Source: an uncultured Gammaproteobacteria bacterium
GTDB lineage: Bacteria; Patescibacteriota; Patescibacteriia; CAZGFX01
DNA: 64,000 nucleotides
Assembly: GCA_964524845.1 (NCBI GenBank)
Contig: CAZGFX010000002.1
Coordinates: 85,389 to 149,388, forward strand
Reading direction: 5' to 3'
Shown here: positions 4,072 to 48,760 of the stretch, piece after piece
Layout: every line of letters begins with the position of its first letter
Numbering within the stretch: the first letter of the stretch is position 1
The notes under the pieces: generated by a model
Told to the model about the DNA's origin: nothing
Databases searched by the model: none
What the model saw: the letters and a program-made list of their open reading frames with translations, nothing else
Program-made: the position numbers and the translations under genes

Positions 4072-5221
4072 ATGAAAATAATGTACGCATGATTGCGTTT
4101 CTTAATATCTGAGACTGAATTCTATAGTTAAAACGACGCTCAATACGAACCCTTCCATATTCAACAAAATGTTTACATAATTCAGAATCATCCAGTAGCT
4201 GTAAAATACGTTCCGCGGCTGCGGTCGAATTCAAAGGATCAACCAAAAATCCGTTTTTTCCATCTTCAACAGCCTCAGATACTCCACCAGAATTACCAGC
4301 AACCACAGGAAGTCCCATAATATTAGCTTCTAGAAAAACTATTCCGAATCCCTCAACATCTCCGTTTGGAAGTTCTCTTGGAAGAAGCGAGAATACGGAA
4401 CTAATCCTATACAACTGATTACGATCATAAGATGAAAAAATATTTGTAATAATCATAGCTCTATGACCAACTCCATGAGTATCAATAAGCGACCGCAGCC
4501 GCGCCTCTTCGGGTCCACCTCCTACAATAATCAAAAATGTATCGGGATCTTGTGTTTGAATATCTGCAAAAGCGCGAATCAGCATATCAAAACCTTTTCG
4601 TTCAACAAGTCTACCTACACTTATAATAATTTTTGAATTGGGAGGAATGTGAAATTTTTCACATATATCCTCTTTTTCTCCCTGTTTAAGTGGTAACGGT
4701 TCTTCTAAATTAGTAGCTGGATACACGACTTCTGTTTTTTCTTTTGATATTCCGTACTGCAAAGCGACCGATCTCGTCATTTCAGAGTTCAACACAACTA
4801 ACGATGCATCCTTCAAAACCAATGATACATTATTGAATGTCTTATCTTTTGTAATAAATGGAACTTTTATATCCATTCCATGAGCTATAACAACATAAGG
4901 TATACCTCGAGCACGCGCAATACGACGAACGGCCTGGCCTGATATGACTGGTTGTCCAGCAATAATGAGATCTGGTTTTGTTATACGAACAATGTGCCTC
5001 AGTTTCCACCACAAAAGAATCCATCTCGGACGAAACACATGAGAAAGCATTGCTATTCGTATAACATTAAATGGGAATTTTTTAACAGTTTCTCCTGATT
5101 TTGTTTTTGGAGCCACAACAGTAACGACGTCTTGTCGAAGTTCAGAACAAAGACCGTTCCCATATTCGCCTATACCACCTCTCATAGGAGGAAAATCGAC
5201 TGTTACATACAATATGTTCAT
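4055..5221 (-). CDS. glycosyltransferase family 4
   Basis: EGFGIVFLEANIMGLPVVAGNSGGVSEAVEDGKNGFLVDP, classic GT4 EX7E region. Confidence 0.8.
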   Translation of the reverse strand: MNILYVTVDFPPMRGGIGEYGNGLCSELRQDVVTVVAPKTKSGETVKKFPFNVIRIAMLSHVFRPRWILLWWKLRHIVRITKPDLIIAGQPVISGQAVRRIARARGIPYVVIAHGMDIKVPFITKDKTFNNVSLVLKDASLVVLNSEMTRSVALQYGISKEKTEVVYPATNLEEPLPLKQGEKEDICEKFHIPPNSKIIISVGRLVERKGFDMLIRAFADIQTQDPDTFLIIVGGGPEEARLRSLIDTHGVGHRAMIITNIFSSYDRNQLYRISSVFSLLPRELPNGDVEGFGIVFLEANIMGLPVVAGNSGGVSEAVEDGKNGFLVDPLNSTAAAERILQLLDDSELCKHFVEYGRVRIERRFNYRIQSQILRNAIMRTLFSYGEKN

Positions 5222-9763: not shown

Positions 9764-10147
9764 TTAAGTCTTTGTTAAAGCTCGTTTACCACTTCCAGCA
9801 GTATTGCGAACATTGCCCCGAACGGTACGAGAATTTGTCTTAGTTGTCTGTCCTCTTACAGGAAGTCCTTTTGCATGACGAGATCCTCTAAAACAATGAA
9901 TTTCTTTTAAGCGTTTTACATGTTGCATAATTTCACGCTTTAAATCACCTTCTATCTTAAATTGTTCTACACTCGCACGAAGTTTATTTACCTCATCTTC
10001 TGTCAGATTTTCAACTTTTGTATTCTCATCAATTCCAATCTGTGAAAGAATTTTCTTTGCACGAGGAATACCAATGCCGTAAATATACGTCAATGCTATA
10101 ACAACTCTTTTTTCTTTTGGAAGATTTCTTCCTGCAATACGTGCCAT
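9764..10147 (-). CDS. rpsM: 30S ribosomal protein S13
   Basis: [26 protein letters not shown]...; start moved to the in-frame ATG at 10147 (track start 10159 adds MNII). Confidence 0.93.
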
Positions 10148-10160
10148 AATAATATTCAAA

Positions 10161-10277
10161 TTAACCTTGTCTTTGTTTATGCTTAGGATTCTTCTTACAC
10201 ACGATATATACTCTTTTCTTTCTTCGTACCACCTGGCATGAAGAACATCGTGGTTTTGCTGCTGCGTGTACTTTCAT
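10161..10277 (-). CDS. rpmJ: 50S ribosomal protein L36
   Basis: Below the ORF-track size cutoff; hand translation [38 protein letters not shown] (38 aa), canonical L36, between infA and rpsM. Confidence 0.9.
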
Positions 10278-10290
10278 ACTTTGTTTTAAA

Positions 10291-10575
10291 TTAATAACGA
10301 TAGGTGATACGTCCTTTGGTAAGATCGTATGGAGTCATCTCAACCTTTACTTTATCTCCTGGTAAAAGCTTAATTTGATTCATACGCATTTTACCAGAAA
10401 GATGAGCTATGATTTTATGACCATTGTCGAGCGTAACCGCGAACTTCGCTCCCGGTAGAAGCTCGTCAACCATACCAGCATACTCAATGAAACCTTTTTT
10501 ATTTGCTTGCGGTCCGACATTTGGAGAAAATCTCCTCGAATCAGACAGCTTTTCACCGTTAAAAGTGTTATCCAT
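10291..10575 (-). CDS. infA: translation initiation factor IF-1
   Basis: Core [65 protein letters not shown]; about 25 aa N-terminal extension as called, true start may be downstream/non-ATG. Confidence 0.88.
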
Positions 10576-10753
10576 TACTTGTTTAGATTAAAAAATATAT
10601 TGAACACATAAATACGATGCGTTACTACGCATTGTGTATTTACATTATTTATGCTTATTTAACAAGTAGCTGGGCATAATTATATGTAAATAATGGCAAA
10701 AGTCAACTCCTTTTAGCCTCTTATCAAGCTACTTATTCACACATAATTACCCG

Positions 10754-12568
10754 CTATTTTTTATTTGCCAAAACAGTGGCTTTTATACGACGAATTCCAG
10801 CCGAAGAAGCCTCTTCTTTAAGTATTTTAAAACCCTCTAATTCAGCGGTATTTTCAACATGTGGTCCACCACAAATTTCTTTTGAAAAATCTCCTATAGA
10901 ATAAACTTTTAATTCATTCATCTTATTGTATTTTTCATCAAAAACACCCATTGCACCTGATCTTTTGGCATCTTCTCGACTCATGGTCTCGCAAGTAACC
11001 GGAAGTGATTTTTTTATTTGTTCGTTTACAATATCCTCGACTTTTTTTAATTCTTCTGGTGTAACTTTTTGTGGATTAGGAAAATCAAACCTAAGCCGTT
11101 CCGGAGTTATGTTTGAGCCTTTTTGTTCAACATGATCCCCAAGAACCATACGAAGAGCTTGTAAAAGCAGATGACTTGCTGTGTGAAGACGTACATTCTC
11201 TTTTGATGTATCGGCAAGTCCCCCTGCAAATTTCTGTGTTGCGCCCTCACGAGACTTGTTTTGGTGCTCTTTAAATAATTTTTCGAACCCTTCTTTATCA
11301 ACTCCAGCGAAACCATACTCAACGGACATTTCTGCTATTAACTCAAAAGGATATCCGTATGTCGTATATAAATCAAAAACATCTTCTCCGTTTAAAATAT
11401 TTCGATCAGAATATGTTCTAATCTTTTTATCAAAAACTCTTTCACCTTCTTGTAGTGTTTTTCTAAATAAATTTTCTTCTCTTTCAAAAGCCCCTAATAT
11501 AAATGATTGACGTTCATCAAGTTCAGAATAATAAATTATATATTGATCAATAATCAGTTTTGAAATTGTATTTAATATGTGTTCGTGTATGTTAATTTTA
11601 AAAGCGTTACGAATAGCTCGACGCAATAATTTACGCACAACATATCCCTGATCAACGTTTGATGGTCCCACTCCGTTTCTATCTCCAGTAATTATGGTAG
11701 CGGCTCTAATATGATCAGCAATAATACGAACGGATCTACGTATTAAATTATCTTGTTCGTATTGATATCGAGACAATTTACCCATTTCGAGTATTTTATC
11801 AATTATATTTCTAAAAATATCCGTCTCGTAAACACTCGTGCAACCATTCAATACGGCAAGAGTACGCTCAAGCCCCATGCCAGTATCAACGTTTTGTTTA
11901 TCAAGTTTCTCAAGAGCACCATTCTTGAAAGAAAACTCCATAAAAACATTATTCCATATTTCAACCCACCTAGAATCAGATGTGTCGAATTTATCAGGAG
12001 CAGGAGTGTCATTTGGTACCCAATAAAAAATTTCTGTATCAGGTCCACAAAGCCCATCAATACCCATCTTTGGCCACCAGTTGTTATCATCTCCCATAAA
12101 TTCAATTCTTTTTTCATGAACTCCCAAACTAATCCATTGTTTATACGAAACATCATCTTTAGGAACATTAAACTTTTCATTTCCTTCATAACACGTGAAG
12201 GCCAGGCGCTTCGGATCAAGTCCAAGCCATTTTTTATCTGTCAAAAACTCATAGCTCCATTCTATAGATTCCTTTTTAAAATAATCACCAAGAGACCAGT
12301 TTCCAAGCATTTCAAAAAAAGTAAGGTGGTTATCATCTCCAACCTCATCAATATCATTTGTGCGAATGCATTTCTGATAATTTACCAACCTATTTCCTGA
12401 TGGATGAATGTTTCCTGATAGATAAGGAACAAGTGGTTGCATTCCTGCCGTATTAAAAAGTACCGTATTATCGTTTTCTGGAATTATAGAAGCAGAAGGA
12501 ATTGCTACGTGTCCTTTTGATTCAAAAAATGATATAAATTTTTTCTTTAGATCGTCTGATGTCATCAT
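10754..12568 (-). CDS. alaS: alanine--tRNA ligase, short form (catalytic + editing domains, no C-Ala domain)
   Basis: 604 aa; N-terminal class II AlaRS core (FNTAGMQP...WSLGDYFK) and editing-domain HxxxH...CGGPH motifs (HTASHLLLQALR...ICGGPHVENT). Confidence 0.9.
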   Translation of the reverse strand: MMTSDDLKKKFISFFESKGHVAIPSASIIPENDNTVLFNTAGMQPLVPYLSGNIHPSGNRLVNYQKCIRTNDIDEVGDDNHLTFFEMLGNWSLGDYFKKESIEWSYEFLTDKKWLGLDPKRLAFTCYEGNEKFNVPKDDVSYKQWISLGVHEKRIEFMGDDNNWWPKMGIDGLCGPDTEIFYWVPNDTPAPDKFDTSDSRWVEIWNNVFMEFSFKNGALEKLDKQNVDTGMGLERTLAVLNGCTSVYETDIFRNIIDKILEMGKLSRYQYEQDNLIRRSVRIIADHIRAATIITGDRNGVGPSNVDQGYVVRKLLRRAIRNAFKINIHEHILNTISKLIIDQYIIYYSELDERQSFILGAFEREENLFRKTLQEGERVFDKKIRTYSDRNILNGEDVFDLYTTYGYPFELIAEMSVEYGFAGVDKEGFEKLFKEHQNKSREGATQKFAGGLADTSKENVRLHTASHLLLQALRMVLGDHVEQKGSNITPERLRFDFPNPQKVTPEELKKVEDIVNEQIKKSLPVTCETMSREDAKRSGAMGVFDEKYNKMNELKVYSIGDFSKEICGGPHVENTAELEGFKILKEEASSAGIRRIKATVLANKK

Positions 12569-20923: not shown

Positions 20924-22411
20924 TCACTTTAAAACAAATGTTTCCTCAACTGGCGCACGAAGCGTTTCCGAAAGCACATACGTACTCTGTGAATCAGTAC
21001 ATACTCCGTGTATTGGTGTGTTATCTATACGACGAGCCGTTTTAAACTCTATGTAAAATGGAGAATTATTAAATTCCTCTGGGTATGATACGAATTCTGG
21101 AGGTGTGTTTGGTGTATTATATGTAAATACAAATGTACTTTTTGACTGAGCTGGAATTTTAATAGGAAATACTATTGTTTTTGCACCGTATTCATTATAA
21201 AAATCATACATATCAAGCGGAAGTACTTTTTTGTTTTCTTGCTGAATTCCAAAAACCTCAGCTATTGCATCTGGGTGTACATATATTTTTTCAAGCATCG
21301 TCACATCATTGGAAGATGTGTTTTTATAATCAATCCATAAAGTATTTTTGAGCGACACATTCTCATATGTCATTCTTCTCTCATATGATAATGATAAATT
21401 TTTCTTACATTCTGACTCCATACAATCATGATGTATTGAAAAAACATCTTTTGTTTTCTGACCAAAAGGATATACTGGTAAATTATTTTTTAAAAAAACA
21501 TCACGAAGAGTCATATTGGTAGTATATACATACATGTTCCCATTTTGAATTGCATAAAAAAGCTTATCATATGAAAAACCAGAGCACGAACCTTGTTCTG
21601 TAGTACTTATAAGCCCACACAAAACATCTGTCGAGAAATTATCAATTTTTATTAATGTATCAATTCCATATTTTGCACGAAGAGTTTCAAAGACATAAGG
21701 AGGCCTAGCTATCCACTTATCATTTTTTAAATCATCGTTGTTTTTATAATACCGAGCCATCATCTTCTTCTCCTCCTCGTTTATTACAAAAGGTATTTGA
21801 TCGCTCGTGCTTTCTAATTTCACACTGTCGTTGTATTTTTTATACACTGAAAATTTCTGTAATTTTCCACCAAAAAAATCATATTCTTCACCACTCACAG
21901 TTGCTACACCGAGCGTTTGTAATGAGTTTTTTATAGAAACATAAATCTCTTCGCCTTTGAATTTCGCCGCATTCGTATTAATGCTTCCTGAAAGATTTTT
22001 TACAAATTGTTCAACGGGTGATTTAAAAAAACTAGTTTGTATATCATCTGTCTTTATAAAAGAAGTAAATTTCTCATCAGAAAAATTATAACCCAATATG
22101 TACTCTTTTGTATGTTCTATAATTGATTTAACAATATGTATGTCTGAACGAAATCTAGGTAGAATATCAGCGATCATAATACGATCAATTTGTTTTTCCA
22201 TCGTCTGTAGTTTCTCCAACACAAGGTCAGACCTATTCTCATCAGTTGAGCTTGTAAGAATATTAATAAGCGAATGAACGCGCACGACATCAAGAACAAT
22301 TATAAAAACAAGTGCGATACCACATATTATATAAGCAAAAAACCGTATTTTCTTTAAAACAGAAATTTTCCTGTATGTATCAAGATCCTTCACAGGACGC
22401 GTTTCTTCCAT
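20924..22411 (-). CDS. hypothetical membrane-anchored protein (last gene of ATPase module)
   Basis: 495 aa; single N-terminal TM (FFAYIICGIALVFIIVL), large extracytoplasmic domain; 12 bp downstream of the ATPase gene. Confidence 0.5.
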   Translation of the reverse strand: MEETRPVKDLDTYRKISVLKKIRFFAYIICGIALVFIIVLDVVRVHSLINILTSSTDENRSDLVLEKLQTMEKQIDRIMIADILPRFRSDIHIVKSIIEHTKEYILGYNFSDEKFTSFIKTDDIQTSFFKSPVEQFVKNLSGSINTNAAKFKGEEIYVSIKNSLQTLGVATVSGEEYDFFGGKLQKFSVYKKYNDSVKLESTSDQIPFVINEEEKKMMARYYKNNDDLKNDKWIARPPYVFETLRAKYGIDTLIKIDNFSTDVLCGLISTTEQGSCSGFSYDKLFYAIQNGNMYVYTTNMTLRDVFLKNNLPVYPFGQKTKDVFSIHHDCMESECKKNLSLSYERRMTYENVSLKNTLWIDYKNTSSNDVTMLEKIYVHPDAIAEVFGIQQENKKVLPLDMYDFYNEYGAKTIVFPIKIPAQSKSTFVFTYNTPNTPPEFVSYPEEFNNSPFYIEFKTARRIDNTPIHGVCTDSQSTYVLSETLRAPVEETFVLK

Positions 22412-22423
22412 ATTAAATAAAAA

Positions 22424-24316
22424 TTATCTTTTATGAATCGAGATTGGTTGACGTGAAAGCGCCTCTTTAAGGCTTATGGGAGCGGGTTGTGTCACTTGTT
22501 GTAATGGTGTTTGTTGTTCGGTGTGTTCTTTCTCACGAGAAACAGGAGACACACCAAAACGAGAAGGTGTTTTTGATAATAGTGGATTTCCCATTGATGG
22601 ATTTCCCATTGATGGTGATTGGGACGGCTTGTTTCTTTCTCCTTTTGTAAAAGAGTTTTCGCGATCTATAATATCTGTAATACGATGTTCTATTGCGTTT
22701 GGATTTTCCATTATCGCTTTTTGACGTCTGTATACAGCAAGACAATCTTTACAGAGCACTGGGCGTTTCCCGTCTGGTTTAAATGGTACCATTGTTTCAT
22801 TTCCACACCCATCGCATTTAGTTTCAAACATTTCTTTTTGTGCTGGCAAATCGCCCGTTTCTGTTTGTGGATATTGTGCGCTTTGCGTATTTTGTGAAAA
22901 AGAAGAATATTGACTAGGTGCTTGTATGTGCACTTCTTGTGTTTTTTCAAAAACAGGTTGCTTGGGAGATGTTTGTGTCGAATAAGGCGATGGTTCCTCT
23001 ACCTTGTGTACAACGGCTGTACTTAATATGCCACCAGGAGCATGTGCCCACAAACGAATACCCTCTTCAACCTCAGCACGCGGTCGAGCATATTTCTTTC
23101 TGGTGAGTTCTGTAATTATTTTTTCCGTTTCAACGCTTTTTGGAATTTTAAATGTGTTTAGTGTGTTTGCTGAAAACGCATCAGACGTAACCCCATTCAC
23201 CATAAGCTTAATATAACATGTTGCCAACTTGAGATTTACAAGGTCGTTTTTCGTAAAATTAGGAGCAAACTCTTTCTCAAGGAAATCAGCATCATCGGCA
23301 CCAACTCGAAATGAAAGAAGTGTTCCAACATTTCCGAACACTGCGTTGCGAACCTCATCAATAAGCTGTTGAATATACTGATGCGCTATAATAAGATTCA
23401 AACGATATTTTCGGGCTTCTGATAATATTCCAGCGAAAGACTCTGTAGCAAAGTTTTGAAACTCATCAACATATAAATAAAAATCCGGACGTTCGTTTTC
23501 ATTAACAATATCAACCCTGCTCATAGCCGCCATCTGAAGCTGTGTAATAATCATAGCACCAAGAAGTGCTGAATTATCCTCGCCAATTCTTCCTTTTGAA
23601 AGATTAACGATTAGAACCATCTTATTATCCATGATATGACGAATATCGACAGGGCTTTTTATCTGGCCAACGATGTTCCTCATCATTGTTGATGATAGAA
23701 ATTGTCCGACTTTGTTCTGTATAGGAGCCGTTGCTTCAGCTTTGAGTTTGTCCGGATATTTAGGATACTCATCAAGCCAAAATGTTCTTACCGATGTGTT
23801 CTTTACATATTGTAATACATTTTTACGATAATCATTATCAACCAATATTCTCATGATTCCAAGCATCGTACTTTCGGGATATTCCAAAAGAGCGAGAATA
23901 GCATTTCGAAGCACATACTCAAGGCGAGGACCCCATGAATCAGCCCATATCTTTTTAAATACAGCGACAAGTCCTGATGCGACCAGATGGCATTGGGCAG
24001 GATTATGAACGTGCATAACATTAAAACCTATTGGAAACTCCGTATCTGAAGGATTAAAATACACAATATCTTCATATCTGTTTGGCGGAATCATTTTAAT
24101 AATATCTTCGGCATATTCTCCGTGCGGATCAATCAGGGCAACACCCTCTCCATTATAAATATCCTGTATAATCATGTTTTTGATAAGAGTCGTTTTTCCC
24201 ATACCCGTCTTACCAACAATATAAAAATGCTTGCGACGATCTTCTCGCCTAATACCAAACTTCACCGATTTGTTTCGATAATTTGTTTCAGCGAATATAT
24301 TTAAATCTTTTGGCAT
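22424..24316 (-). CDS. VirD4/TraD-like coupling-protein-type P-loop ATPase (FtsK-HerA superfamily) with C-terminal C4 zinc ribbon
   Basis: Walker A GKTGMGKTT, Walker B-like FYLYVDEFQNF; C-terminal CDGCGNE...CKDCL plus low-complexity tail. Start set to ATG at 24316 (track start 24367 is TTG and overlaps upstream gene). Confidence 0.65.
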   Translation of the reverse strand: MPKDLNIFAETNYRNKSVKFGIRREDRRKHFYIVGKTGMGKTTLIKNMIIQDIYNGEGVALIDPHGEYAEDIIKMIPPNRYEDIVYFNPSDTEFPIGFNVMHVHNPAQCHLVASGLVAVFKKIWADSWGPRLEYVLRNAILALLEYPESTMLGIMRILVDNDYRKNVLQYVKNTSVRTFWLDEYPKYPDKLKAEATAPIQNKVGQFLSSTMMRNIVGQIKSPVDIRHIMDNKMVLIVNLSKGRIGEDNSALLGAMIITQLQMAAMSRVDIVNENERPDFYLYVDEFQNFATESFAGILSEARKYRLNLIIAHQYIQQLIDEVRNAVFGNVGTLLSFRVGADDADFLEKEFAPNFTKNDLVNLKLATCYIKLMVNGVTSDAFSANTLNTFKIPKSVETEKIITELTRKKYARPRAEVEEGIRLWAHAPGGILSTAVVHKVEEPSPYSTQTSPKQPVFEKTQEVHIQAPSQYSSFSQNTQSAQYPQTETGDLPAQKEMFETKCDGCGNETMVPFKPDGKRPVLCKDCLAVYRRQKAIMENPNAIEHRITDIIDRENSFTKGERNKPSQSPSMGNPSMGNPLLSKTPSRFGVSPVSREKEHTEQQTPLQQVTQPAPISLKEALSRQPISIHKR

Positions 24317-24320
24317 ATTT

Positions 24321-25901
24321 TTATTTTTTATTATCGAGATTAAACATCGTGTCAGGATTATAATCAAGACTTAATTTTTGAGCATCTTGTCCTTCTTTAG
24401 ACATAATTTCTTCATCTTCTTCTTCGCCGCTTGGAATAAATGCTTTCATAAAATCCTCCCCTGGCTCATTTGTTCGTGCAGAAAGTGAAACATCTAACTC
24501 AGATGCAACAGGAAGACCGGGAGACACGGCATTCGGATCGTACCTGTGTTCATATTCTTTATTTGTCATCATGTCATCATTGATAATCGCCATTGGAACA
24601 CCTCCTCCAGGAAGAATTTTTCCGACGGCTTGTATATCAAAAGACGGATCTCCTATTGGCAACGTAACAGGAGCGGATGATTTTGCCGCTTCTACAGTCT
24701 TAATGAGAGTTGCTTTTATGTTTGCGGCTGGGAAGTGATACATCGTGGCAAGTTCCTGCCCTGTCATAATCATCGGTGCATCTCCTCCCATACTTCTTTC
24801 TTTAAATAAACGTACCATCTCTCCTTGTTTTGCAGACAATTTTTCAGGAACTTTGAAATAAGCGTCTTTTATTTCTGTTACGGATGTGGAACTTGGCACA
24901 ATACTATTAAGCCCAAGTGAATTAAACTGATTTAATGCTCCTATAATTGCAACGATGCCTCGTTCTTTTGAATAAACTTTTTTATGAGCAATATAAAGAA
25001 GACGCATTTTCGTCTTGAATGCATATTGAGAAATTTTTTCAGCAACTCCTTTTGCGACTTGTTGTAGATACGGATCATCATCTTTTGCTGCTGTTTTTTC
25101 TTCTTTTTTCTGAGCAGCAGACCCGGCTGGAATACCAAATGATAATATCCATTCGCTGAAATTCCATAGTGCATCAACAACCCACTGAACAAACTTATCT
25201 CCTGTATGTTCTTTTGCGGCTGGTTTTCCATCCTTACTCTTAAGACCAGCCAGAAACTTCTTTCCATCTTCGTTCCATTTTGAATCCTGAGGAGTAATTA
25301 TAAATTGTAGTGCCACCATTTCTCCTGTGCGTATTTTTGACAAATTTTCAATTATTGATGATATCGGATCAAATTTATCACTAATTTGAGAAAACGTCTT
25401 TATTGGAATATAACTTTCTTTTTTAAAAACAAAATCATTTGCCCATACCGTATATGATGATTCTATTTCATGAACATCTTTTGGAACATCGTCCATATAA
25501 TCTCTGACTTCTGCTATTTCAGCATCCGGATACTGTGCGAATAATGCTGCTTCTATAAGATCACGAATTACAACTGGGCATCTTACCAAAAATTGAATAT
25601 ATCCTTCTATACTGATTAGCTCAAAACTGATCGTATGACCAATAGAAGAAGATAGAGCAACAAAAACATGTTCAACGGCCATAAGGCCTTGTGTATTAAC
25701 ACGAGGAATATCAATTGCGAGAAGAATGTATTTTATTTCTTCTTTTTTCTTTTTTGATTTTTCTTTTTCATTATGTGCTGTGATCAGCATATATAAAAAA
25801 GCTCCCAGGATTAAAAAAGCACCACCATACGTAAAAAACAGTATGGTGAGTTGCCAGGGACTTTCCCCTAAAATATGTATGAGTTCGGCAATCATCGGCA
25901 T
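24321..25901 (-). CDS. hypothetical membrane-anchored protein (first gene of ATPase module)
   Basis: 526 aa; N-terminal TM (LTILFFTYGGAFLILGAFLYMLI), acidic C-terminal tail; stop 4 nt from ATPase start. Confidence 0.5.
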   Translation of the reverse strand: MPMIAELIHILGESPWQLTILFFTYGGAFLILGAFLYMLITAHNEKEKSKKKKEEIKYILLAIDIPRVNTQGLMAVEHVFVALSSSIGHTISFELISIEGYIQFLVRCPVVIRDLIEAALFAQYPDAEIAEVRDYMDDVPKDVHEIESSYTVWANDFVFKKESYIPIKTFSQISDKFDPISSIIENLSKIRTGEMVALQFIITPQDSKWNEDGKKFLAGLKSKDGKPAAKEHTGDKFVQWVVDALWNFSEWILSFGIPAGSAAQKKEEKTAAKDDDPYLQQVAKGVAEKISQYAFKTKMRLLYIAHKKVYSKERGIVAIIGALNQFNSLGLNSIVPSSTSVTEIKDAYFKVPEKLSAKQGEMVRLFKERSMGGDAPMIMTGQELATMYHFPAANIKATLIKTVEAAKSSAPVTLPIGDPSFDIQAVGKILPGGGVPMAIINDDMMTNKEYEHRYDPNAVSPGLPVASELDVSLSARTNEPGEDFMKAFIPSGEEEDEEIMSKEGQDAQKLSLDYNPDTMFNLDNKK

Positions 25902-25941: not shown

Positions 25942-27024
25942 TTATACGAGTGTATATGCTCCGTTTTCTAATTTCTTAAATTTCTTTTTATTCATAAGAG
26001 CGAGTACAATAGTGCTCTTTTTTACCATACGTTGCTTGAGTACGTGCTCTGTGATCTCATCTTTAGTTAATGGTTTTCCTACAGTACGAAGCACTTCTTC
26101 AATAACATCGGCAACGACACCTGGTTTATATCCCCATTCTTTAAGGGCATACATACCGCGTCCAATAAGAACATATTTCTGATCAAGAATAAGTTCGTTG
26201 TGAACTGTTGCTGGATGAGCTTTTTTCTTGTCTTTAAATACCTCATTAATTCTACGAGCAATATCAGTAAAATGCATTGGGTGTCCTTCTTTCTTTAGAA
26301 CAAGATAAATCTTATCGTTAATTTTCTTCGGAGTTACTGTAGGCCAGTTAGCCTTTCCCCACTCTCCATATACATTCTTTTCAATAAGTTTACTTAACTC
26401 AAGAAGAGAAAGTAAAAAATTATTTGTCACCTTATCTTTATTCTCATTAAAATGACGTGTTTTTGAAAGACGTTCCTCTATATGAGTTTTCTGCATAGGA
26501 TCTGACATGGAATCAAAAATTTCATGTAAAACATCTAACGTTTTTTCTACAAACTGATCATCAACATGCTTCAATCTCCACGAACAATACATCTTGTCGT
26601 GTTCCTTGTGACAATTAAAGCTATCCTGAGTAAAATTACGCAATAAGAAAATAAGAATGTTTTTCTTTACATCACCAGCTTCAGCATCAGCAACAAGTCT
26701 ATCAACAAGATATTGCTCATGCATGACTCCGCCATATTCAAGAAGAAGATTTCGTATAACATTCTTTACTGGTTCGATTACCTTACCAAGAACTTCGCTA
26801 TTTTTAAGTTTCTTAATAGTAGCGTTTTCTACTTGTCGAATACGTTCGCGAGTAACGCCATAATGTTTGCCGATCTCTTCTAGAGTTTTAATTCTTCCTC
26901 CATCAAGAGCGTATCGACCACCAATAACGCCAGTTTCACGATCAGTTAAACCAGCAAACAAAACCTTAACGATTGATTCCAAATCGATGTTTTTGTTTGC
27001 AACATGTTCTTTATTATTTGTCAT
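25942..27024 (-). CDS. sigma-70 region-4-like HTH protein with C-terminal HARE-HTH-like domain(s)
   Basis: N-terminus LTDRETGVIGGRYALDGGRIKTLEEIGKHYGVTRERIRQVENATIKKL matches sigma-70 region 4; C-terminal ...HPMHFTDIARRINE...YVLIGRGMYALKEWGY resembles HARE-HTH. Confidence 0.55.
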   Translation of the reverse strand: MTNNKEHVANKNIDLESIVKVLFAGLTDRETGVIGGRYALDGGRIKTLEEIGKHYGVTRERIRQVENATIKKLKNSEVLGKVIEPVKNVIRNLLLEYGGVMHEQYLVDRLVADAEAGDVKKNILIFLLRNFTQDSFNCHKEHDKMYCSWRLKHVDDQFVEKTLDVLHEIFDSMSDPMQKTHIEERLSKTRHFNENKDKVTNNFLLSLLELSKLIEKNVYGEWGKANWPTVTPKKINDKIYLVLKKEGHPMHFTDIARRINEVFKDKKKAHPATVHNELILDQKYVLIGRGMYALKEWGYKPGVVADVIEEVLRTVGKPLTKDEITEHVLKQRMVKKSTIVLALMNKKKFKKLENGAYTLV

Positions 27025-27162: not shown

Positions 27163-28065
27163 TTAACGTGAGCGATACTTATCCCACAATATTAATAATG
27201 GACTTGCAATAAATATTGATGAGTATGTACCAACAATAATACCAATAACAAGTGCCAAAACGAAATATTGAATTGTCGTTCCACCAAAGAAAAACATTGA
27301 GAGAAGAACAAACAAGGCTGTCGAAGACGTATTAATAGAACGAACAAGCGTTTCATTAATACTTGTATTAATAATATCTTTAAATGAGCTATGTTTATCT
27401 CTTAAAAGATTTTCTCTTACTCTATCAAACACAACAATTGTGTCATGAACGGAGAAACCAAGAACTGTAAGAAGTGCTGTTATAAACAAGCTATCAATTT
27501 CAACCCCTTTGAAATGTCCTAAGAAACTAAATATTCCAGCTGTTATTGTAACATCATGCACTAGTGCGATTATGGCCGCAAAACCATACACAAACGATGA
27601 TATTGGTTTTGATACCTTACGAAATGCATATGCTATATATATAACAATACCTATAAGAACTAATATAATAGAAAGGTAAGCGTTTCGTTTCGTTTCGCTT
27701 CCTATAACACTTCCTATAGAATCAAAACGACGCTCTTCTATCTTGTTTTGATCTTTCTCATATGTTTTTTTGATATCGTCTATAAGTTTTGCATGATCGT
27801 CAGCCGAAAGTTCTTTCGTCTTTATGACAATCGACGTATCTCCAAGTGGTTGTACTTTCGCATCAGCAAAACCATTGTCTTTTAAAACACTTGCTATGTC
27901 TTTGGAATCAGGACGAGGACCCGAAAAAGATATTTCGACAAGCGATCCTCCTGTAAAATCAATATTTGGCTTGAGCCCCCAAGCGATAAGTGCTGTGGCG
28001 CTTATAAGTACCAACAAAACCGACAGGCCGAGAAAAATCTTGTTATATTTTACAATGTTAAACAT
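27163..28065 (-). CDS. secF: protein translocase subunit SecF
   Basis: 300 aa; FTGGSLVEISF..., 6 TM, directly downstream of secD. Confidence 0.9.
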   Translation of the reverse strand: MFNIVKYNKIFLGLSVLLVLISATALIAWGLKPNIDFTGGSLVEISFSGPRPDSKDIASVLKDNGFADAKVQPLGDTSIVIKTKELSADDHAKLIDDIKKTYEKDQNKIEERRFDSIGSVIGSETKRNAYLSIILVLIGIVIYIAYAFRKVSKPISSFVYGFAAIIALVHDVTITAGIFSFLGHFKGVEIDSLFITALLTVLGFSVHDTIVVFDRVRENLLRDKHSSFKDIINTSINETLVRSINTSSTALFVLLSMFFFGGTTIQYFVLALVIGIIVGTYSSIFIASPLLILWDKYRSR

Positions 28066-28069
28066 ATGA

Positions 28070-29812
28070 TTATTCTATAATAAAGAACTTGTTATGTCTG
28101 ATAAACGCCGGCACTGTTACCAAACGCAATATAGTGCGAGTAACATTGATTGCTGTAAAAATACTGACAAGAATACCAAGTCCGAGTGTAACAGCAAAAC
28201 CTTGAATCATACTTGTTGATGTAAAATACAAGATTGCGCATGTGATCAAACTTGAAACATTTGAATCCCTAATCGAATTCCAAGCGCGTAAAAAACCTTC
28301 TTCAATTGCAACAGAAAACGGATGTCCTGCGCGAAGTTCTTCTTTTGTGCGTTCAAAAATCAGAATATTTGCATCAACTGCCATACCAACCGAAAGTAAG
28401 TAACCAGCAACGCCAGCAAGTGTTAATGTAATAGGAATAAACTCAAAAAGAGCAAGTAAAATAACCGAGTAAACTCCAAGGGCAATAACTGATATCAGCC
28501 CTAAGAAACGATAAAACACAATCATGAATACCGAAACCAGAATTAAACCTATAAGACCAGCGACAATGCTTGTGTGAACCGATTCTGCTCCAAGTGTTGG
28601 ACCAATTGTTTGTTGGCTTAGAAGTGTTATTGGCACAGGAAGCGCGCCTGCACTGAGGCGCCGCGCCAATTCTTTTGCCACTTGAGCGTTTTCCATATTC
28701 GTAATCACTGCGTCACCGCCAATAATTTTCTCACTTACGCGTGGCGCCGAAAGAACGCTTCCATCAAGAAAGATTGCAACTTGTTTTCCAACGTTACGCC
28801 CAGTAATATCTTCGAACAACTTCTTTCCCTCATCGTTAAAAGCAAGTTGGACAAGTGGGGTACTTGTATTTTGATCAAAAATGACTTTTGCCGATTTGAG
28901 TTGAGTACCCGAAAGTCCCGTGGTCTTCCACATCACAGTATCTCCAAGCGCAGCAAGAAGATCTTTGCTTGTTCTGATTTTGAATAAAATATGACTTACT
29001 TTTACCTCTTTTTCTTTTGAGGCCGGCTTTCCATCAGTCGCGGGAACATCAACTTCGCGAACATCATCAAGTTTTATAATATGATATCCAAATTGAGATT
29101 TTACAAGAGAAGGAAATAGCTCTCCTTTGTTTTTTAATTTACCAAAAACAACATCTTCGAACTCTTTAACATACATTCCTTTGCGAGCCCAATCAAGCTG
29201 TCCCCCATTATCTCTTGTCCCGTCTTGTGAACGTTCTTTTGCAAGTGTTGCAAAATCTTTACCAGCCTTAACTTCCGCGAGTGTTTTGTCTGCAAGTTCT
29301 TTCATGCTTTTGTTTATTTTTTCAGCATCACCTTCAAACTTAGATGCTTCGGTATCAATTTCAGCTTCTGTTTTTGCTTCTTTGAATTCCAAAATAGGTG
29401 TTTCTCCTATTTTTTTAATCGCATCTTTTAAATCTGATATTCCTGGTAATTCGATAATAATACGATCCTGCCCAGATGTCGTTACTGATGGTTCTCCAAC
29501 ACCAAATGCATTGACTCTTCTTTCAATTACATCTCTAGCGCCCTCAATCGCCTCACGCACATCTCCTATTGGGACACGCGAAAGATCGGCTTGATACACA
29601 AGCTGTGCTCCACCTTTTAGATCAAGCCCTAAATGAGGTGTAAAAGAGTTAAAAAACTTACTCGCCCAAAAACGCTCTGGAATATGCGGTGTGGCAATTA
29701 AAGCGCACACCACACTCAAAATAACGATAAAAACAAAAGACCCCCAGACCTTTCTTCTGCTTACCGGCTTTCTAGCATTGTTCTTTTGATCCATAAATTG
29801 TGTTAAAAACAT
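28070..29812 (-). CDS. secD: protein translocase subunit SecD with embedded parvulin-type PPIase-like segment
   Basis: LGLDLKGGAQLVYQADLS start of P1 domain, C-terminal 6-TM SecD core; residues about 185-250 FATLAKERSQDGTRDNGGQLDWARKGMYVKEFEDVVFG...FGYHIIKL match parvulin motifs. Confidence 0.88.
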   Translation of the reverse strand: MFLTQFMDQKNNARKPVSRRKVWGSFVFIVILSVVCALIATPHIPERFWASKFFNSFTPHLGLDLKGGAQLVYQADLSRVPIGDVREAIEGARDVIERRVNAFGVGEPSVTTSGQDRIIIELPGISDLKDAIKKIGETPILEFKEAKTEAEIDTEASKFEGDAEKINKSMKELADKTLAEVKAGKDFATLAKERSQDGTRDNGGQLDWARKGMYVKEFEDVVFGKLKNKGELFPSLVKSQFGYHIIKLDDVREVDVPATDGKPASKEKEVKVSHILFKIRTSKDLLAALGDTVMWKTTGLSGTQLKSAKVIFDQNTSTPLVQLAFNDEGKKLFEDITGRNVGKQVAIFLDGSVLSAPRVSEKIIGGDAVITNMENAQVAKELARRLSAGALPVPITLLSQQTIGPTLGAESVHTSIVAGLIGLILVSVFMIVFYRFLGLISVIALGVYSVILLALFEFIPITLTLAGVAGYLLSVGMAVDANILIFERTKEELRAGHPFSVAIEEGFLRAWNSIRDSNVSSLITCAILYFTSTSMIQGFAVTLGLGILVSIFTAINVTRTILRLVTVPAFIRHNKFFIIE

Positions 29813-30039: not shown

Positions 30040-31398
30040 ATGTTCTCTCTAAAAACAAAAAGAATATTATATATATGCGCATTTCTTGTTTTTTTTATAT
30101 GCGTTCCAATTATTATAGGATATAGCTCGGGTTTTCGTATTAATTGGAATAATTTTAGAATATTCAAAACAGGACTTCTATATTTAGAAACAATTCCTCG
30201 TCTCGTAAAAATAGATATAGGAGGTAAAACCATGACGAAATTAACTCCTTACCGTGCCAACAACCTGTATCCAGGAAATTACATTGTCAGCATACACAAA
30301 GATGGTTATTACAGCTGGCAAAAAGAAGTATCGATTCAATCTGGAGAAAGCACCTTATATAAAAATATTCGTCTTTTTCCAATATCGACGCCACGACAAC
30401 TAATCTCAAAAATAAAAAACACGAAAGATTATAATAAACATGGAATTATTTTTGAAACTGATTCTGAATACGAATATTATATGTATGATGATTCATCTCC
30501 ACGTATAACAATACCAAAAACAACAATATCGAAACCACCGATCCTTAATCGCACAGAAAACGCACTTATATATAAAAAAGACGATGTTTATATAATAGAA
30601 AAAATTGGTATAACTCGTTCGATTAACAAAATACCCGAGAAAACAAACGAAACAAATATTCGTTCCGAAAAAAATATAATAGAAAAAGAGCAAAAGAAAG
30701 AAGATTTCCGCACTCACATTCAAGAAATATACTGGGCTAATACAGATACAGTCATATATATTGATGATAATAATACTGTTTTTGGTTATACAATCAATGA
30801 TTCACAACCTATTTTGCTTGATAAGAAAAAAAACCAAAAAGATATATATTTTAAATGGGGTGGAAATTTTTATAAAATAACAAATGATGACGACTCTTCT
30901 TTTGTCCAAGAATTAACCGAAGATGCTTCGTGGAACACTTCGTTTATTCTACCAAAAAGTCTATCTATTACATATCGATATGACATAATGAACTCTTTAC
31001 TTAATCTACTGGATACGGAACGAAATATCTGGTATCAACTTCATCCACAAACGTTCACATACTCAATTATTCAAAACGCTTCTTGTATTCAACCGCTTCG
31101 CAAAGACACAACATCATATTACAATGATCACGAGGTGTTTAGTATCAAAGACTCAGAGCGCCCTGTTTTATTAACTCGATCTTCTATTCCAATAAAAAGA
31201 TCGTTTATTCTTCCTGATCAGTCATATTTTTTTATTCTTTATGCAAATGGAGACCTAACAATCAATGAAAACGATACGAAAGGAAAAAGAAATATAATTA
31301 CAATTGCAAACTCCGTCGAAGATTTTTTTGTACATCCGTCATTTTCAAAAATATATATAATAAAAGAAGACACGCTCTTAAGTATGTCTATTGAATAG
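30040..31398 (+). CDS. hypothetical membrane-anchored protein
   Basis: 452 aa; N-terminal TM; large extracytoplasmic domain. Confidence 0.5.
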   Translation: MFSLKTKRILYICAFLVFFICVPIIIGYSSGFRINWNNFRIFKTGLLYLETIPRLVKIDIGGKTMTKLTPYRANNLYPGNYIVSIHKDGYYSWQKEVSIQSGESTLYKNIRLFPISTPRQLISKIKNTKDYNKHGIIFETDSEYEYYMYDDSSPRITIPKTTISKPPILNRTENALIYKKDDVYIIEKIGITRSINKIPEKTNETNIRSEKNIIEKEQKKEDFRTHIQEIYWANTDTVIYIDDNNTVFGYTINDSQPILLDKKKNQKDIYFKWGGNFYKITNDDDSSFVQELTEDASWNTSFILPKSLSITYRYDIMNSLLNLLDTERNIWYQLHPQTFTYSIIQNASCIQPLRKDTTSYYNDHEVFSIKDSERPVLLTRSSIPIKRSFILPDQSYFFILYANGDLTINENDTKGKRNIITIANSVEDFFVHPSFSKIYIIKEDTLLSMSIE

Positions 31399-31415: not shown

Positions 31416-32519
31416 TTATAAAAAACGACTCACCCACCCAATACATCTCTCAACTATTTTAAGTTTGTACTTAGCATACCACGGTGATTTAAACTCATAA
31501 TAATGAGATCCTGATATAATTCCTTCTGTATCAGAAACTATATCCTGAACGACACTGGGATCGGAAACAACGATGCTATTTTCATAATTATACTCCTTAC
31601 TTCTATTATCAAAATTATATGATCCGAGAACCACTCTTTTCTCATCTGCTATAATTGTTTTTGAATGCAACTTTCCAGGCCAAAGAAAGGTTTTGATTGG
31701 ACGATTAATATTATTATATTCGTATAAAAGTCGAAGCCTGGCAAATATAACCCATCGTAAAAAAGCCGTCTCATATCTACCAGGAAGAACAATAGTAACA
31801 GAAACACCTCTATCTAAAGCGTCCTGTAAAGACTTTATAATATCATCGGATGGTAAAAAATACGTATGCATAAAAATAAGAGATTTTGATGCACTTTTTA
31901 TAAGTGAAATAATCTGATCATGAATAATGTTTTTTCCCCAAGGAAATTTATTAAAAAAAGAAAAGTGTTCATGAATATAAAAAACAGGAAGACGCACTCC
32001 TTTTTGTATAAAATAATTTAGCTTCTGAACACTTTTTACCAAACCTTTGTTTGCTATTACGAGTCCGGAGTCAACCCACTTATCATGCGCCCTTTCTCCA
32101 TAAAACTCACTCGATATGTTTACACCACCTATAAGAATTATACGATTATCTATTACAAGTAGTTTATGATGATTAACCTCGATAAATGTCGAAAAAAGTC
32201 TTTTCAATCGAGATGTTTTATAAGGATTATGAGCATAAACCTCAACTCCGTTTTCTTCGAGTCTTTGAAAAAAACTTCTTTTTGTTAGGACACATCCGTG
32301 AGCATCGTATATCAAACGTACACGAACACCACTTCTGGCCTTGTTTATAATAGCTAAGGAGAATCTTTCTCCTATCTCATCATCCTCAACTTGATAAAAA
32401 TTCGCCTCAATACTTTCTGTGGCTTTTTCAATAAGCGAAAAAATCTCATCTAGAACTTTTTTGCCAGAATTAAGAAAATATAAATGCTTGTTTTTTGGTT
32501 TTATACCAAACTTATACAT
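31416..32519 (-). CDS. phospholipase D family protein, cardiolipin synthase B-like
   Basis: Two HKD motifs: HHKLLVIDNRIILIGGVNIS and HSKTIIADEKRVVLGSYNFDNRS; no TM segment. Confidence 0.75.
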   Translation of the reverse strand: MYKFGIKPKNKHLYFLNSGKKVLDEIFSLIEKATESIEANFYQVEDDEIGERFSLAIINKARSGVRVRLIYDAHGCVLTKRSFFQRLEENGVEVYAHNPYKTSRLKRLFSTFIEVNHHKLLVIDNRIILIGGVNISSEFYGERAHDKWVDSGLVIANKGLVKSVQKLNYFIQKGVRLPVFYIHEHFSFFNKFPWGKNIIHDQIISLIKSASKSLIFMHTYFLPSDDIIKSLQDALDRGVSVTIVLPGRYETAFLRWVIFARLRLLYEYNNINRPIKTFLWPGKLHSKTIIADEKRVVLGSYNFDNRSKEYNYENSIVVSDPSVVQDIVSDTEGIISGSHYYEFKSPWYAKYKLKIVERCIGWVSRFL

Positions 32520-46292: not shown

Positions 46293-46754
46293 TTATTCAT
46301 CATGCGCTGACAAAGATGTCAGCTTATGCCGAAAAGTCCAAAACTTGTTACCAAAAAAATTGACTAATACCGTACAAGCAACCGCGCACAGCTTCGCTAT
46401 AATAACATGATATTCCAATGTTCCGTGTATAACATATAAAACAAGTTCAGATACACCTAGTCCGAGAAGCGCGACAATAAAAAATTTAGGTATTTCATAA
46501 TAAGCTTTGCCGGAAGATCGAAATGTAAATTTTCTGTTCAATGTAAAACTCAATAATACAGAAAAAATAAAAGAAACTATGTTTGTAATCAGATAATAAT
46601 ATTGAAAAAAAGAAACCGAAAACACAAGAAGCCAAAAAACTCCGATATCAAATAACGTTACAATGCCACCAATAAAAGAAAACATTATAAAATCTCCGAA
46701 TACCGAATCACGAACAATTCGATACGGCTTCCACAATCTTAATCTCTCCACCAT
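46293..46754 (-). CDS. GtrA family membrane protein
   Basis: 153 aa, 4 TM, FIGGIVTLFDIGVFWLL...NRKFTFRS pattern typical of GtrA. Confidence 0.65.
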   Translation of the reverse strand: MVERLRLWKPYRIVRDSVFGDFIMFSFIGGIVTLFDIGVFWLLVFSVSFFQYYYLITNIVSFIFSVLLSFTLNRKFTFRSSGKAYYEIPKFFIVALLGLGVSELVLYVIHGTLEYHVIIAKLCAVACTVLVNFFGNKFWTFRHKLTSLSAHDE

Positions 46755-48760
46755 ACACCATCTCTCAAGTGAATTAGATCAAAATCCCAAACATTTTTTA
46801 TCGGAACCTTATCATACCTATCAAAAAAATTTGTTGATATGACTCCGTCTCGGTTTGAAGGAAGAGTGAATACTACATCTTGTTTATCATCAAGAACACC
46901 TCTTAAATAATCAACTTTTTTACTATCATTTATCACGTCGTCTTTTAAATACTCATAAGCCGATGAATAATTATGTAGCCTATTCCAAGAATATGAGTAT
47001 AATTTATCATCTGTTAAATATAATCGTTTTCCATATCTATTATTTCTTCCGCTTTCATATTGAACCAATCCACTTCCATCCGCGTTCGAAACCGCCATAT
47101 CTTTTTTCCAGCCCTCTCTCGCATCACTTAAGATAACTGCTACCTCTGGATTTCCATCAGCATTTAAATCTCTTACATCAACATCATAACCGGCTATTAA
47201 TTTAGGAGATAGAGCGAACCACTGCGCATAAACTTTACCAAACATATCAAATACTCTTACATGAGGACCTCCTCCTCTATATGGCACTGTAACAATTAAA
47301 TCCTTCTCCCACTTACCACCTAATTGTCTTCCGAGTGGACCGTTTCTCCTTATCGTATCAACACGAACACCTCCGATAAAAAGATCTCCATACGCCTGAA
47401 ACCTTGTTCGAAATATGCCATCGTATTCAAACACATCAACAATTGATTTCCTTCCATTAATATATGAAACGGCTATTTCATCAACTCCGTCTGCATCGAA
47501 ATCTCCGGTCGTCATCTGCACATCATCTAGTGCCCCTCGATATATTAAAAATGATTGTATGATATTTCCTTCTGTCGTTACTATGCGTAAATAATACTTT
47601 CCGTTTTCTTGCACAATAACAGCAAGGACCGTGTGCGGAACAATTGTAATTGCTTTGATTATTGAATCAACGATATTGAGGGCTCTCACCGTCGTTCCTT
47701 CTGATCCTAGTGGTGTCGCATTATTAATCAAAAGATCTCTGATTTCAGAGTTTGTATAATATGGATACTCCGACATTATATACGCGGCGGCGGCGGAAAC
47801 AAACCCAGTAGCAAGAGACGTTCCCCACCATCCTGTTCCTACAGTATCTCGAAGCGTCGAACGTTCATATTCGTACGTAAGCGTTGAAATAATTTGTTCA
47901 CCGATTGCATAAATATCAACGCACGTATCTCCAACATTTGAAAAAACTGACACGGATTTTGTTTTTGCTATAGAACCAACCCCAATAACTATATTATCAG
48001 AAAAAACTGAACACACCGGATATAATGGCTTGTCGTTTAAATTTCTTCTTACAGCACCATCTTTGTATTCTCCGTTTCCAGCCGCCGCTACTATGAGTAC
48101 ACCGTGATCCCATGCATATTGAATGGCTTTTTTGAGCTCAAGACTTTCCTTTCCTGATATAAAACTCATGTTTATTACTCTCGCTCCATGATCTACTGCG
48201 TAATATATTCCTTTGATAACTGCATTAATATCTCCTATACCGTTCGCGGCGACAGCGCGAATAGGCATTATTTTTATATTTCCTTTTCCAACTCCTACCG
48301 TCCCGTTTCCATTGTGTTCGGCCGCGATAATTCCAGCAATAAAAGTTCCGTGATGCATGGCTTCGTATGATGCACCAGTTGATGTAACAGGAGATGGATT
48401 GCTATCGTTATCAGCAAAATCCCATCCATTATAATCATCTGTATATCCATTATAATCATCATCTTTCCCGTTTCCTGGTATTTCACGATAATTATGCCAG
48501 ATATTTTTCATGAGATCAGGATGATCAAGGTCAACCCCGGAATCAATAACAGCAACAACAACTTGATTTACACCATTATAATCAGTCCAAACCTTCTCCA
48601 TTTCCATCGTACGTAAATAATCCATGTTCACATACATCGAATCGCCTGGTATATATGTTTTTATTATTTGTACATCTTGCGCCTCAGCAAACACACCAAA
48701 AAACATTCCTATACAAATAGGAATTATAAGAAGTTTTCGTGCTATCTCATGCCATTTCAC
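46739..48760 (-). CDS. secreted subtilisin-like serine protease (peptidase S8) with C-terminal FG-GAP-like repeats
   Basis: Signal peptide; catalytic triad regions VAVIDSGVDLDHPDL, HGTFIAGIIAA, GTSLATGFVSAAAAYI; C-terminal DFDADGVDEIAV / RDLNADGNPEVAV repeats. GTG start. Confidence 0.85.
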   Translation of the reverse strand: MKWHEIARKLLIIPICIGMFFGVFAEAQDVQIIKTYIPGDSMYVNMDYLRTMEMEKVWTDYNGVNQVVVAVIDSGVDLDHPDLMKNIWHNYREIPGNGKDDDYNGYTDDYNGWDFADNDSNPSPVTSTGASYEAMHHGTFIAGIIAAEHNGNGTVGVGKGNIKIMPIRAVAANGIGDINAVIKGIYYAVDHGARVINMSFISGKESLELKKAIQYAWDHGVLIVAAAGNGEYKDGAVRRNLNDKPLYPVCSVFSDNIVIGVGSIAKTKSVSVFSNVGDTCVDIYAIGEQIISTLTYEYERSTLRDTVGTGWWGTSLATGFVSAAAAYIMSEYPYYTNSEIRDLLINNATPLGSEGTTVRALNIVDSIIKAITIVPHTVLAVIVQENGKYYLRIVTTEGNIIQSFLIYRGALDDVQMTTGDFDADGVDEIAVSYINGRKSIVDVFEYDGIFRTRFQAYGDLFIGGVRVDTIRRNGPLGRQLGGKWEKDLIVTVPYRGGGPHVRVFDMFGKVYAQWFALSPKLIAGYDVDVRDLNADGNPEVAVILSDAREGWKKDMAVSNADGSGLVQYESGRNNRYGKRLYLTDDKLYSYSWNRLHNYSSAYEYLKDDVINDSKKVDYLRGVLDDKQDVVFTLPSNRDGVISTNFFDRYDKVPIKNVWDFDLIHLRDGVWWRD

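Follow-up and report, generated by a model that had tools for sequence, protein, structure and literature searches.

The secD-secF locus

The 64-kb stretch of DNA analysed here, referred to below as the window, has a low G+C content (about 0.31-0.38) and carries on its minus strand a secD gene that is followed, 4 nt downstream, by the start of secF. The secD-secF pair is called in the same way on a public contig that encodes an identical SecD protein, so that this protein is present on two contigs. The two genes, and the segments of SecD that are found in SecD proteins generally, are positioned as follows.

28070..29812, minus strand: secD with an embedded parvulin domain, 580 aa (ORF list; a single uninterrupted ORF)
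27163..28065, minus strand: secF, the partner subunit, 300 aa (SecD_SecF_C, E 1.9e-58)
29684..29746, minus strand: TM1 of SecD, residues about 23-43 (hydrophobic stretch; model helix 19-40; Thermus SecDF alignment)
29372..29545, minus strand: N-terminal part of the P1 base, SecD_1st, residues 90-147 (PF21760, E 3.4e-19)
28634..28933, minus strand: P1 head subdomain, residues 294-393 (PF22599, E 2.7e-27, profile positions 15-114 of 114)
28121..28624, minus strand: TM2-TM6 with the GMAVDAN motif, residues 397-564 (PF02355; invariant columns; 3AQP alignment)

The window protein scores 378.4 bits against the TIGR01129 secD model (cut-off 244.4), has the complete SecD-specific set of Pfam domains (SecD_1st, SecDF_P1_head and SecD_SecF_C) and aligns with Thermus thermophilus SecDF (3AQP) with an E-value of 1e-83, and its full structural model matches SecDF structures. 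It belongs to SecD (TIGR01129; RND-superfamily SecDF) by its match to the family model, by its TM1/P1/TM2-6 layout, with model helices of the membrane part at residues 19-40 and 408-572, by its secF neighbour and by the Asp of the AVDxN motif. This residue, D480, is invariant in 38 sequences and is aligned with the GAAVDGN sequence of Thermus SecDF 3AQP; we take it to be the conserved transmembrane Asp of the proton pathway, a role that is known from work on Thermus. The SecD_1st segment terminates in a conserved strand, LEFKE, of which L141, E142 and F143 are invariant in the alignment of homologues, and the alignment of the P1 head to Thermus SecDF begins at Thermus residue 160. Given the position of TM1 and the correspondence to the periplasmic P1 region of Thermus SecDF, the region up to TM2 is extracytoplasmic. 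The closest full-length homologues share no more than about 50-55% identity with the window protein, and those that are named are all from Patescibacteria (Komeili-, Kerfeld-, Veblen-, Falkow- and Kuenenbacteria), which places the source of the window in a lineage of these small-genome (CPR) bacteria.

A parvulin domain within the P1 region of SecD

Two rotamase profiles match the window protein between SecD_1st (residues 90-147) and SecDF_P1_head (294-393), the latter being followed by SecD_SecF_C (397-564). Rotamase_3 (PF13616) is matched by residues 147-251 (E 2.8e-23, 83.1 bits, cut-off 22.5) and Rotamase (PF00639) by residues 163-250 (E 2.9e-17, 63.8 bits, cut-off 21.7), both far beyond chance. 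A preliminary description, made from the DNA sequence alone, had placed a parvulin-type segment in the first extracytoplasmic domain of SecD, at 28958-29335 (residues 160-285), and had quoted the peptide FATLAKERSQDG...FGYHIIKL, which is residues 187-248, and the strand KVSHILFKI, which is residues 271-279; the Pfam matches and the structural models bear this assignment out. The same combination of Pfam domains is present in 120 of the 120 best database homologues.

The insert has the parvulin fold, in which helices pack on an antiparallel sheet of four strands; the parvulins listed with it are PrsA, SurA domains 1 and 2, PEB4, Ess1, PpiD and Par10. Its structural matches include PpiD and SurA, and its best sequence matches among solved proteins are SurA domain 2 and PrsA. 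Pfam detects no SurA_N-type domain in the window SecD, which is therefore not a member of the PrsA/SurA/PpiD family of chaperone-foldases and has only the parvulin module in common with them. The parts of the insert are listed in the order of the protein chain.

29045..29368, minus strand: parvulin core in the native order alpha1 to beta4, residues 149-256
29021..29044, minus strand: hairpin loop from beta4 to the relocated beta1, residues 257-264 (DSSP of both models)
28979..29020, minus strand: relocated beta1, residues 265-278, SKEKEVKVSHILFK (translation; H274 codon 28991-28993)
28931..28969, minus strand: two short helices that lead back to the P1 head, residues 282-294 (DSSP 282-288 and 291-294)

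The core contains S195-x-D197, G204, L206, Y214, F218, S239 and the FGYHII motif, in which H244 is encoded by the codon at 29081-29083. The hairpin loop differs in length among homologues, and H274 and L276 of the relocated beta1 are invariant in the homologue alignment.

In SecDs that have no insert, the LEFKE strand is joined to the head motif, W..TGL(S/T)G, by a variable loop of a few to roughly 35 residues. Residues 60-157 of the window SecD correspond to residues 34-129 of Thermus SecDF, and residues 300-565 to Thermus 160-425, with a base-to-head connector of about 30 residues in Thermus SecDF versus about 140 in the window SecD. It follows from this alignment that the parvulin fills the P1 base-to-head connector, outside the membrane and between TM1 and TM2. 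How the insert is oriented relative to the P1 head is uncertain in the full model, which has a pTM of 0.58.

Circular permutation of the inserted domain

The canonical order of the parvulin fold is beta1-alpha1-alpha2-alpha3-beta2-alpha4-beta3-beta4, whereas in the SecD insert beta1, the xSHILx strand that carries H274, is located behind beta4, the strand that carries H244. That KVSHILFKI follows FGYHII rather than preceding it had been noted in the preliminary description, which left a permuted and a split domain as possibilities; the strand order was confirmed, and the domain is permuted. The first profile position that is matched is 13 for Rotamase_3 and 11 for Rotamase, so the N-terminal strand is absent from its usual place, and in neither model does DSSP assign a strand between the LEFKE base strand and alpha1. 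Both models have strands at residues 242-256 (GYHIIKL...) and 265-278 (...EVKVSHILFK), separated by the hairpin loop. The two histidines of the parvulin fold are carried by beta1 and beta4, which lie side by side in antiparallel orientation, and a chain in which the end of beta4 is looped to the start of beta1 is thus the expected outcome of a permutation. H244 and H274 are predicted to be adjacent in the insert, based on the DSSP hairpin and on homology.

When the insert was de-permuted in silico, by placing residues 265-281 before residue 149, coverage of the PF00639 profile increased from positions 11-97 to positions 1-97, with a rise in score from 67.6 to 71.5 bits. A profile built from 27 de-permuted inserts is colinear with entire PPIase domains, namely those of Pin1 (54-163), Ess1, plant Pin1 and S. 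aureus PrsA (9-109), and its first strand, kEVkasHiLlktk, is aligned to PEIKASHILVKDE of PrsA1 (6XD8). As the first profile positions are recovered solely after de-permutation, the SecD insert is a circular permutant and not a canonical member of the parvulins. The extracytoplasmic P1 region of SecD contains, within it, a complete, circularly permuted parvulin domain, and the permutation may be what allows insertion through the beta1/alpha1 loop.

To our knowledge, the parvulin fold is not known as a circular permutant. The full-text literature searched, with most subscription journals outside its coverage, contains no report of a circularly permuted parvulin and no description of a SecD-parvulin fusion, in agreement with the earlier supposition that the fusion had not been described. 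The SecD-Rotamase combination is already visible in precomputed Pfam annotations, of proteins that are named only 'protein translocase subunit SecD'.

Distribution and two-unit forms

A survey of SecD orthologues located the insert in several groups of Patescibacteria. Among the 80 best species-representative loci, 40 have a single insert and are labelled Komeili-, Kerfeld-, Magasanik-, Moran- and Nomurabacteria and 'Parcubacteria group', although some of these labels are those of obviously mislabelled MAGs. There is no insert in 31 loci, from Portnoy-, Doudna-, Nealson-, Lipton- and Paceibacteria and from Melainabacteria/Sericytochromatia. The remaining nine loci, from Peregrini-, Peri- and Uhrbacteria, encode a version with two units and, in three of these (L049, L055 and L066), SecD and SecF are fused in a protein of about 1,030-1,060 aa. 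Two units are also present in the SecD of Falkowbacteria (P0103, P0117). Two-unit SecD ORFs were seen in L041, L042, L045, L047, L049, L055, L059 and L066.

The order within the two-unit proteins is a degenerate core, a SHIL strand, an intact core with FGYHII and then a second strand. The His of this last strand is lost in Peregrini- and Peribacteria and kept in Falkowbacteria. Judged by this pattern of histidines, the two-unit form fits an arrangement in which the hairpin of a degenerate permuted parvulin houses a canonical, putatively active one.

Stand-alone PrsA-like relatives

The insert was searched against 1.84 billion representative proteins, and its best 150 matches are mostly multi-domain and stand-alone parvulin proteins; five of the 150 are SecD proteins. 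With multi-domain proteins, in which scores add up, set aside, the nearest relatives are about 320-380 aa in length and 45-53% identical to the insert, in alignments that span the relocated strand. These proteins have an N-terminal membrane anchor, SurA_N-type domains (PF13624, PF13623 or PF09312) and a Rotamase domain, and those that are named are annotated as 'peptidylprolyl isomerase' and come from Patescibacteria, mostly Candidatus Magasanikbacteria (e.g. P0131, P0273, P0276 and P0315). The stand-alone set consisted of P0131 and P0273-P0387.

Both strand orders occur in this family. Among 120 stand-alone proteins, 66 have the plain canonical order, about 46 are permuted, with the motif order FGYHI, hairpin, EVKA(S/R)HILF, and in 7 the strand lies ahead of FGYHI together with an extra GG motif; the sequences are otherwise colinear. 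Canonical and permuted stand-alone proteins have an average core identity of 58%, with a maximum of 83%, and the identity between the cores of SecD inserts and those of stand-alone proteins, at 43-45%, is below this 58%. As the stand-alone family has both orders, permutation is a feature of a clade of parvulins in Patescibacteria and not of SecD alone, and comparison of these sequences suggests that it has probably arisen, or been exchanged, easily. In a neighbour-joining tree of the ~85-residue cores, a tree that is too weak for events to be counted, the SecD inserts are mostly together and the stand-alone forms with the permutation are interspersed, as several groups, among those with the canonical order. 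Together, the related canonical, permuted and nested-looking two-unit forms offer a clean natural case of how a permutation arises.

The stand-alone sequences also indicate that a free PrsA-like foldase is not, in general, missing from CPR bacteria. The SecD fusion need not replace an absent foldase, since Patescibacteria also encode the stand-alone PrsA-like proteins. A search with an HMM of the insert detected no second parvulin gene at E < 1 in the six frames of the 64-kb window, nor was a second parvulin found in the 3.2 kb that adjoin the window at its start or within 3 kb of secD in the 80 related loci. In one Patescibacteria contig (L082), a stand-alone PrsA-like gene at 10001-11071 directly follows a DivIC gene, downstream of a ribosomal-protein/rpoA/glycosyltransferase block that is also present at 4-10 kb of the window; secD was not found in the 12.8 kb of this 17,792-bp contig that were covered. 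At the position in the window genome that matches this PrsA-like gene there are only glycosyltransferases, Wzy_C and DUF4012.

Active-site conservation and the role of the insert

Conservation was evaluated in 158 single-insert SecDs, of which 40 are from species-representative loci and 117 from protein clusters, the window protein being the remaining one. H244 is present in 156 of these and H274 likewise in 156, S195 in 155, and D197 and G204 in 157 each, with position 239 being Ser or Thr in all 158. The proline-pocket positions 206, 214 and 218 are occupied by L, by F, M, L or Y, and by F or Y, respectively. The insert therefore has two histidines on neighbouring strands, the Ser-Asp pair, a Ser or Thr before the second histidine and a hydrophobic pocket, residues that we presume, from general knowledge of the family together with the colinear alignment, to match those of the Pin1 active-site numbering. 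This pattern equals the active-site set of active parvulins, which argues for selection on the catalytic site. In Pin1, the two conserved histidines are reported to contribute mainly to stability and, for this reason, their conservation is not a proof of catalysis. In two SecDs, L013 (ORF 2986-4653) and L019 (ORF 2944-4665), both histidines are gone together, FGYHII being changed to DAYYVL or RGLFII and SHIL to SQIE or AMIA, without loss of the domain or of the remainder of SecD. As the histidine-less domain is retained, a non-catalytic role is enough in at least these two proteins.

The host SecD is, in this reading, a normal proton-driven SecDF subunit in which the variable P1 base-head connector has acquired a complete parvulin domain. 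The chain enters this domain at alpha1, continues to beta4 (FGYHII), turns in the hairpin and passes through the xSHILx strand last, before it reaches the P1 head. The P1 head of SecD is thought, from work on Thermus and Deinococcus, to capture the emerging chain and to pull it by use of the proton gradient. The parvulin lies outside the membrane and would be beside this capturing surface, and a PrsA-type parvulin at the head hinge would meet an emerging chain immediately. Beyond the domain identity, permutation, insertion site, residue conservation and lineage distribution, which are established, we infer an activity and an action on substrates, and consider that the SecD parvulin is probably a translocon-tethered foldase or chaperone that would bind chains as SecD pulls them from SecYEG and, in the chains so bound, would speed Xaa-Pro isomerization. 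With the active-site residues conserved, a coupling of folding to export is plausible, and is likewise something that we infer. It is rather doubtful, but possible, that an active permuted parvulin in the P1-head hinge allows one polypeptide both to pull a chain from SecYEG and to isomerize its prolines, with the swing of the head presenting and then releasing the client; if true, translocation and folding would be united covalently in one machine of Patescibacteria.

Parvulin domains that have the fold and lack PPIase activity, as in SurA domain 1 and the parvulin domain of PpiD, are reported in translocon-associated chaperones, and the insert could, like them, be a non-catalytic holdase module that provides a larger P1-head capture surface and prevents back-sliding or aggregation, with no isomerization of prolines. 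The retention of the insert in L013 and L019 after the loss of both histidines is consistent with such a role, as is the first unit of the two-unit variants, which is degenerate yet kept. We nevertheless regard a holdase as unlikely. S195, D197, S/T239, H244, H274 and the pocket positions 206, 214 and 218 are kept in about 99% of the 158 sequences, and this, at an overall identity of only about 50%, exceeds the need of a mere binding surface. In addition, the closest solved relatives, SurA domain 2 and PrsA, are active domains.

A structural or regulatory insert, functioning as a spacer, brake or lever on the swing of the P1 head, or as a docking site for a further component of the envelope, would have no direct role with clients. 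The insert is located exactly at the P1 base-head connector, a region of variable length, and SecD P1 does tolerate lineage-specific additions, E. coli SecD being larger (a 622-residue chain). Such a role is, however, very improbable, because it leaves unexplained the specifically parvulin identity of the insert, with its conserved active-site residues, and the presence of the same permuted domain in stand-alone PrsA-like chaperones that bear SurA_N. The likelihood that secD and a separate PPIase gene were joined artificially, by a chimeric assembly or by wrong calling of the ORF, is negligible, as the ORF is uninterrupted, the protein is identical on two contigs, the Pfam E-values are strong and the insert is internal, with SecD P1 segments on both sides, and artefact and chance alike are rejected by the more than 150 distinct sequences with the same architecture from NCBI, JGI, ENA and Logan assemblies.

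Comparison with known systems

The role proposed for the SecD parvulin as a translocon-tethered foldase or chaperone falls elsewhere to proteins that act in trans: PrsA in Gram-positives, PpiD/YfgM in E. coli and a PrsA-like dome on the translocon in Mycoplasma. PrsA of Bacillus and Staphylococcus (1ZK6, 6XD8, 2JZV and 4WO7) is in the same parvulin family and is closest in sequence to the insert, with near-identical motifs (EVKASHIL, YSED..GGDLG, MVKEFE and SQFGYHIIK). Both PrsA and the insert also lie on the outward side of the membrane, in cells that presumably have no outer membrane, and the clients of both are likely to be Sec substrates. PrsA, however, is a lipoprotein of its own, in which the strands have the canonical order and an N/C chaperone domain is present, whereas the insert is permuted, is part of SecD and has no SurA_N/NC domain. 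The stand-alone SurA_N plus parvulin proteins of Patescibacteria are the nearest relatives of the insert, about 40% having the same permutation and over half the canonical order, but they differ from SecD in being separate proteins of about 350 aa with a membrane anchor and SurA_N-type domains. The SecDFs of Thermus and Deinococcus (3AQP, 5YHF and 5XAN) have the P1 base, P1 head, TM2-6, AVDxN Asp and SecF partner in common with the window SecD but have no PPIase domain, their base-to-head connector being about 30 residues long.

In E. coli, PpiD/YfgM and SurA are parvulin-containing chaperones that, like the SecD insert, are positioned at the exit of SecYEG/SecDF, in this case the periplasmic exit, but these are separate proteins with the canonical order. 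In Mycoplasma pneumoniae, also a genome-reduced organism, a 'dome' formed by Mdp444/Mpn444, Mpn436 and Mpn489 on SecYEG-SecDF places PrsA-like parvulins over the Sec translocon. Crosslinks have been found between Mpn444 and SecD, and substrate density touches the active PPIase domain. The dome is non-covalent and consists of very large lipoproteins that are restricted to Mycoplasma, whereas here a single parvulin is fused into SecD; by analogy, the dome is an independent, non-covalent precedent for a PrsA-like foldase sited at the translocon.

Folding at the exit of the Sec translocon, and whether SecDF passes chains to foldases, is an active question, with recent work on the translocon contacts of PpiD/YfgM and SurA and, in 2025, on the translocon-foldase dome of Mycoplasma. 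The covalent fusion, which is conserved in many uncultivated lineages, is direct genomic evidence that SecD P1 and a PrsA-type foldase share a substrate and a place, and it provides a compact system for testing the coupling of folding to export. As PrsA is a known bottleneck of industrial secretion in Bacillus, the fusion also suggests an engineering route.

Other genes in the window

Just downstream of secF, a minus-strand gene at 25942-27024 encodes a 360-aa protein in which an N-terminal sigma-70 region-4 is combined with a HARE-HTH domain, an unusual pairing. A further minus-strand gene, at 22424-24367, encodes a 647-aa TrwB/TraG-like ATPase (type IV coupling protein or HerA-type) with a treble-clef zinc finger, and is flanked by two large ORFs, 20924-22411 and 24321-25901, both of which are without a Pfam match. 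The alanyl-tRNA synthetase encoded at 10754-12568, also on the minus strand, is short (604 aa); its catalytic domain matches positions 2-436 of 552 and is followed by a tRNA_SAD domain, with no C-terminal extension.

The only stretch of the window with a raised G+C content, 0.40-0.44 versus about 0.31-0.38 elsewhere, contains a minus-strand ORF (49526-53716) for a 1,396-aa protein that has a signal-peptide-like start and no Pfam domain, and a gene for a secreted subtilase (46739-48760) adjoins this ORF. Divergent from secD, on the plus strand, a gene at 30040-31398 encodes a protein of 452 aa that is anchored in the membrane and contains a PEGA domain, and is adjoined by a gene (31416-32519) for a PLD-type, cardiolipin-synthase-like protein.
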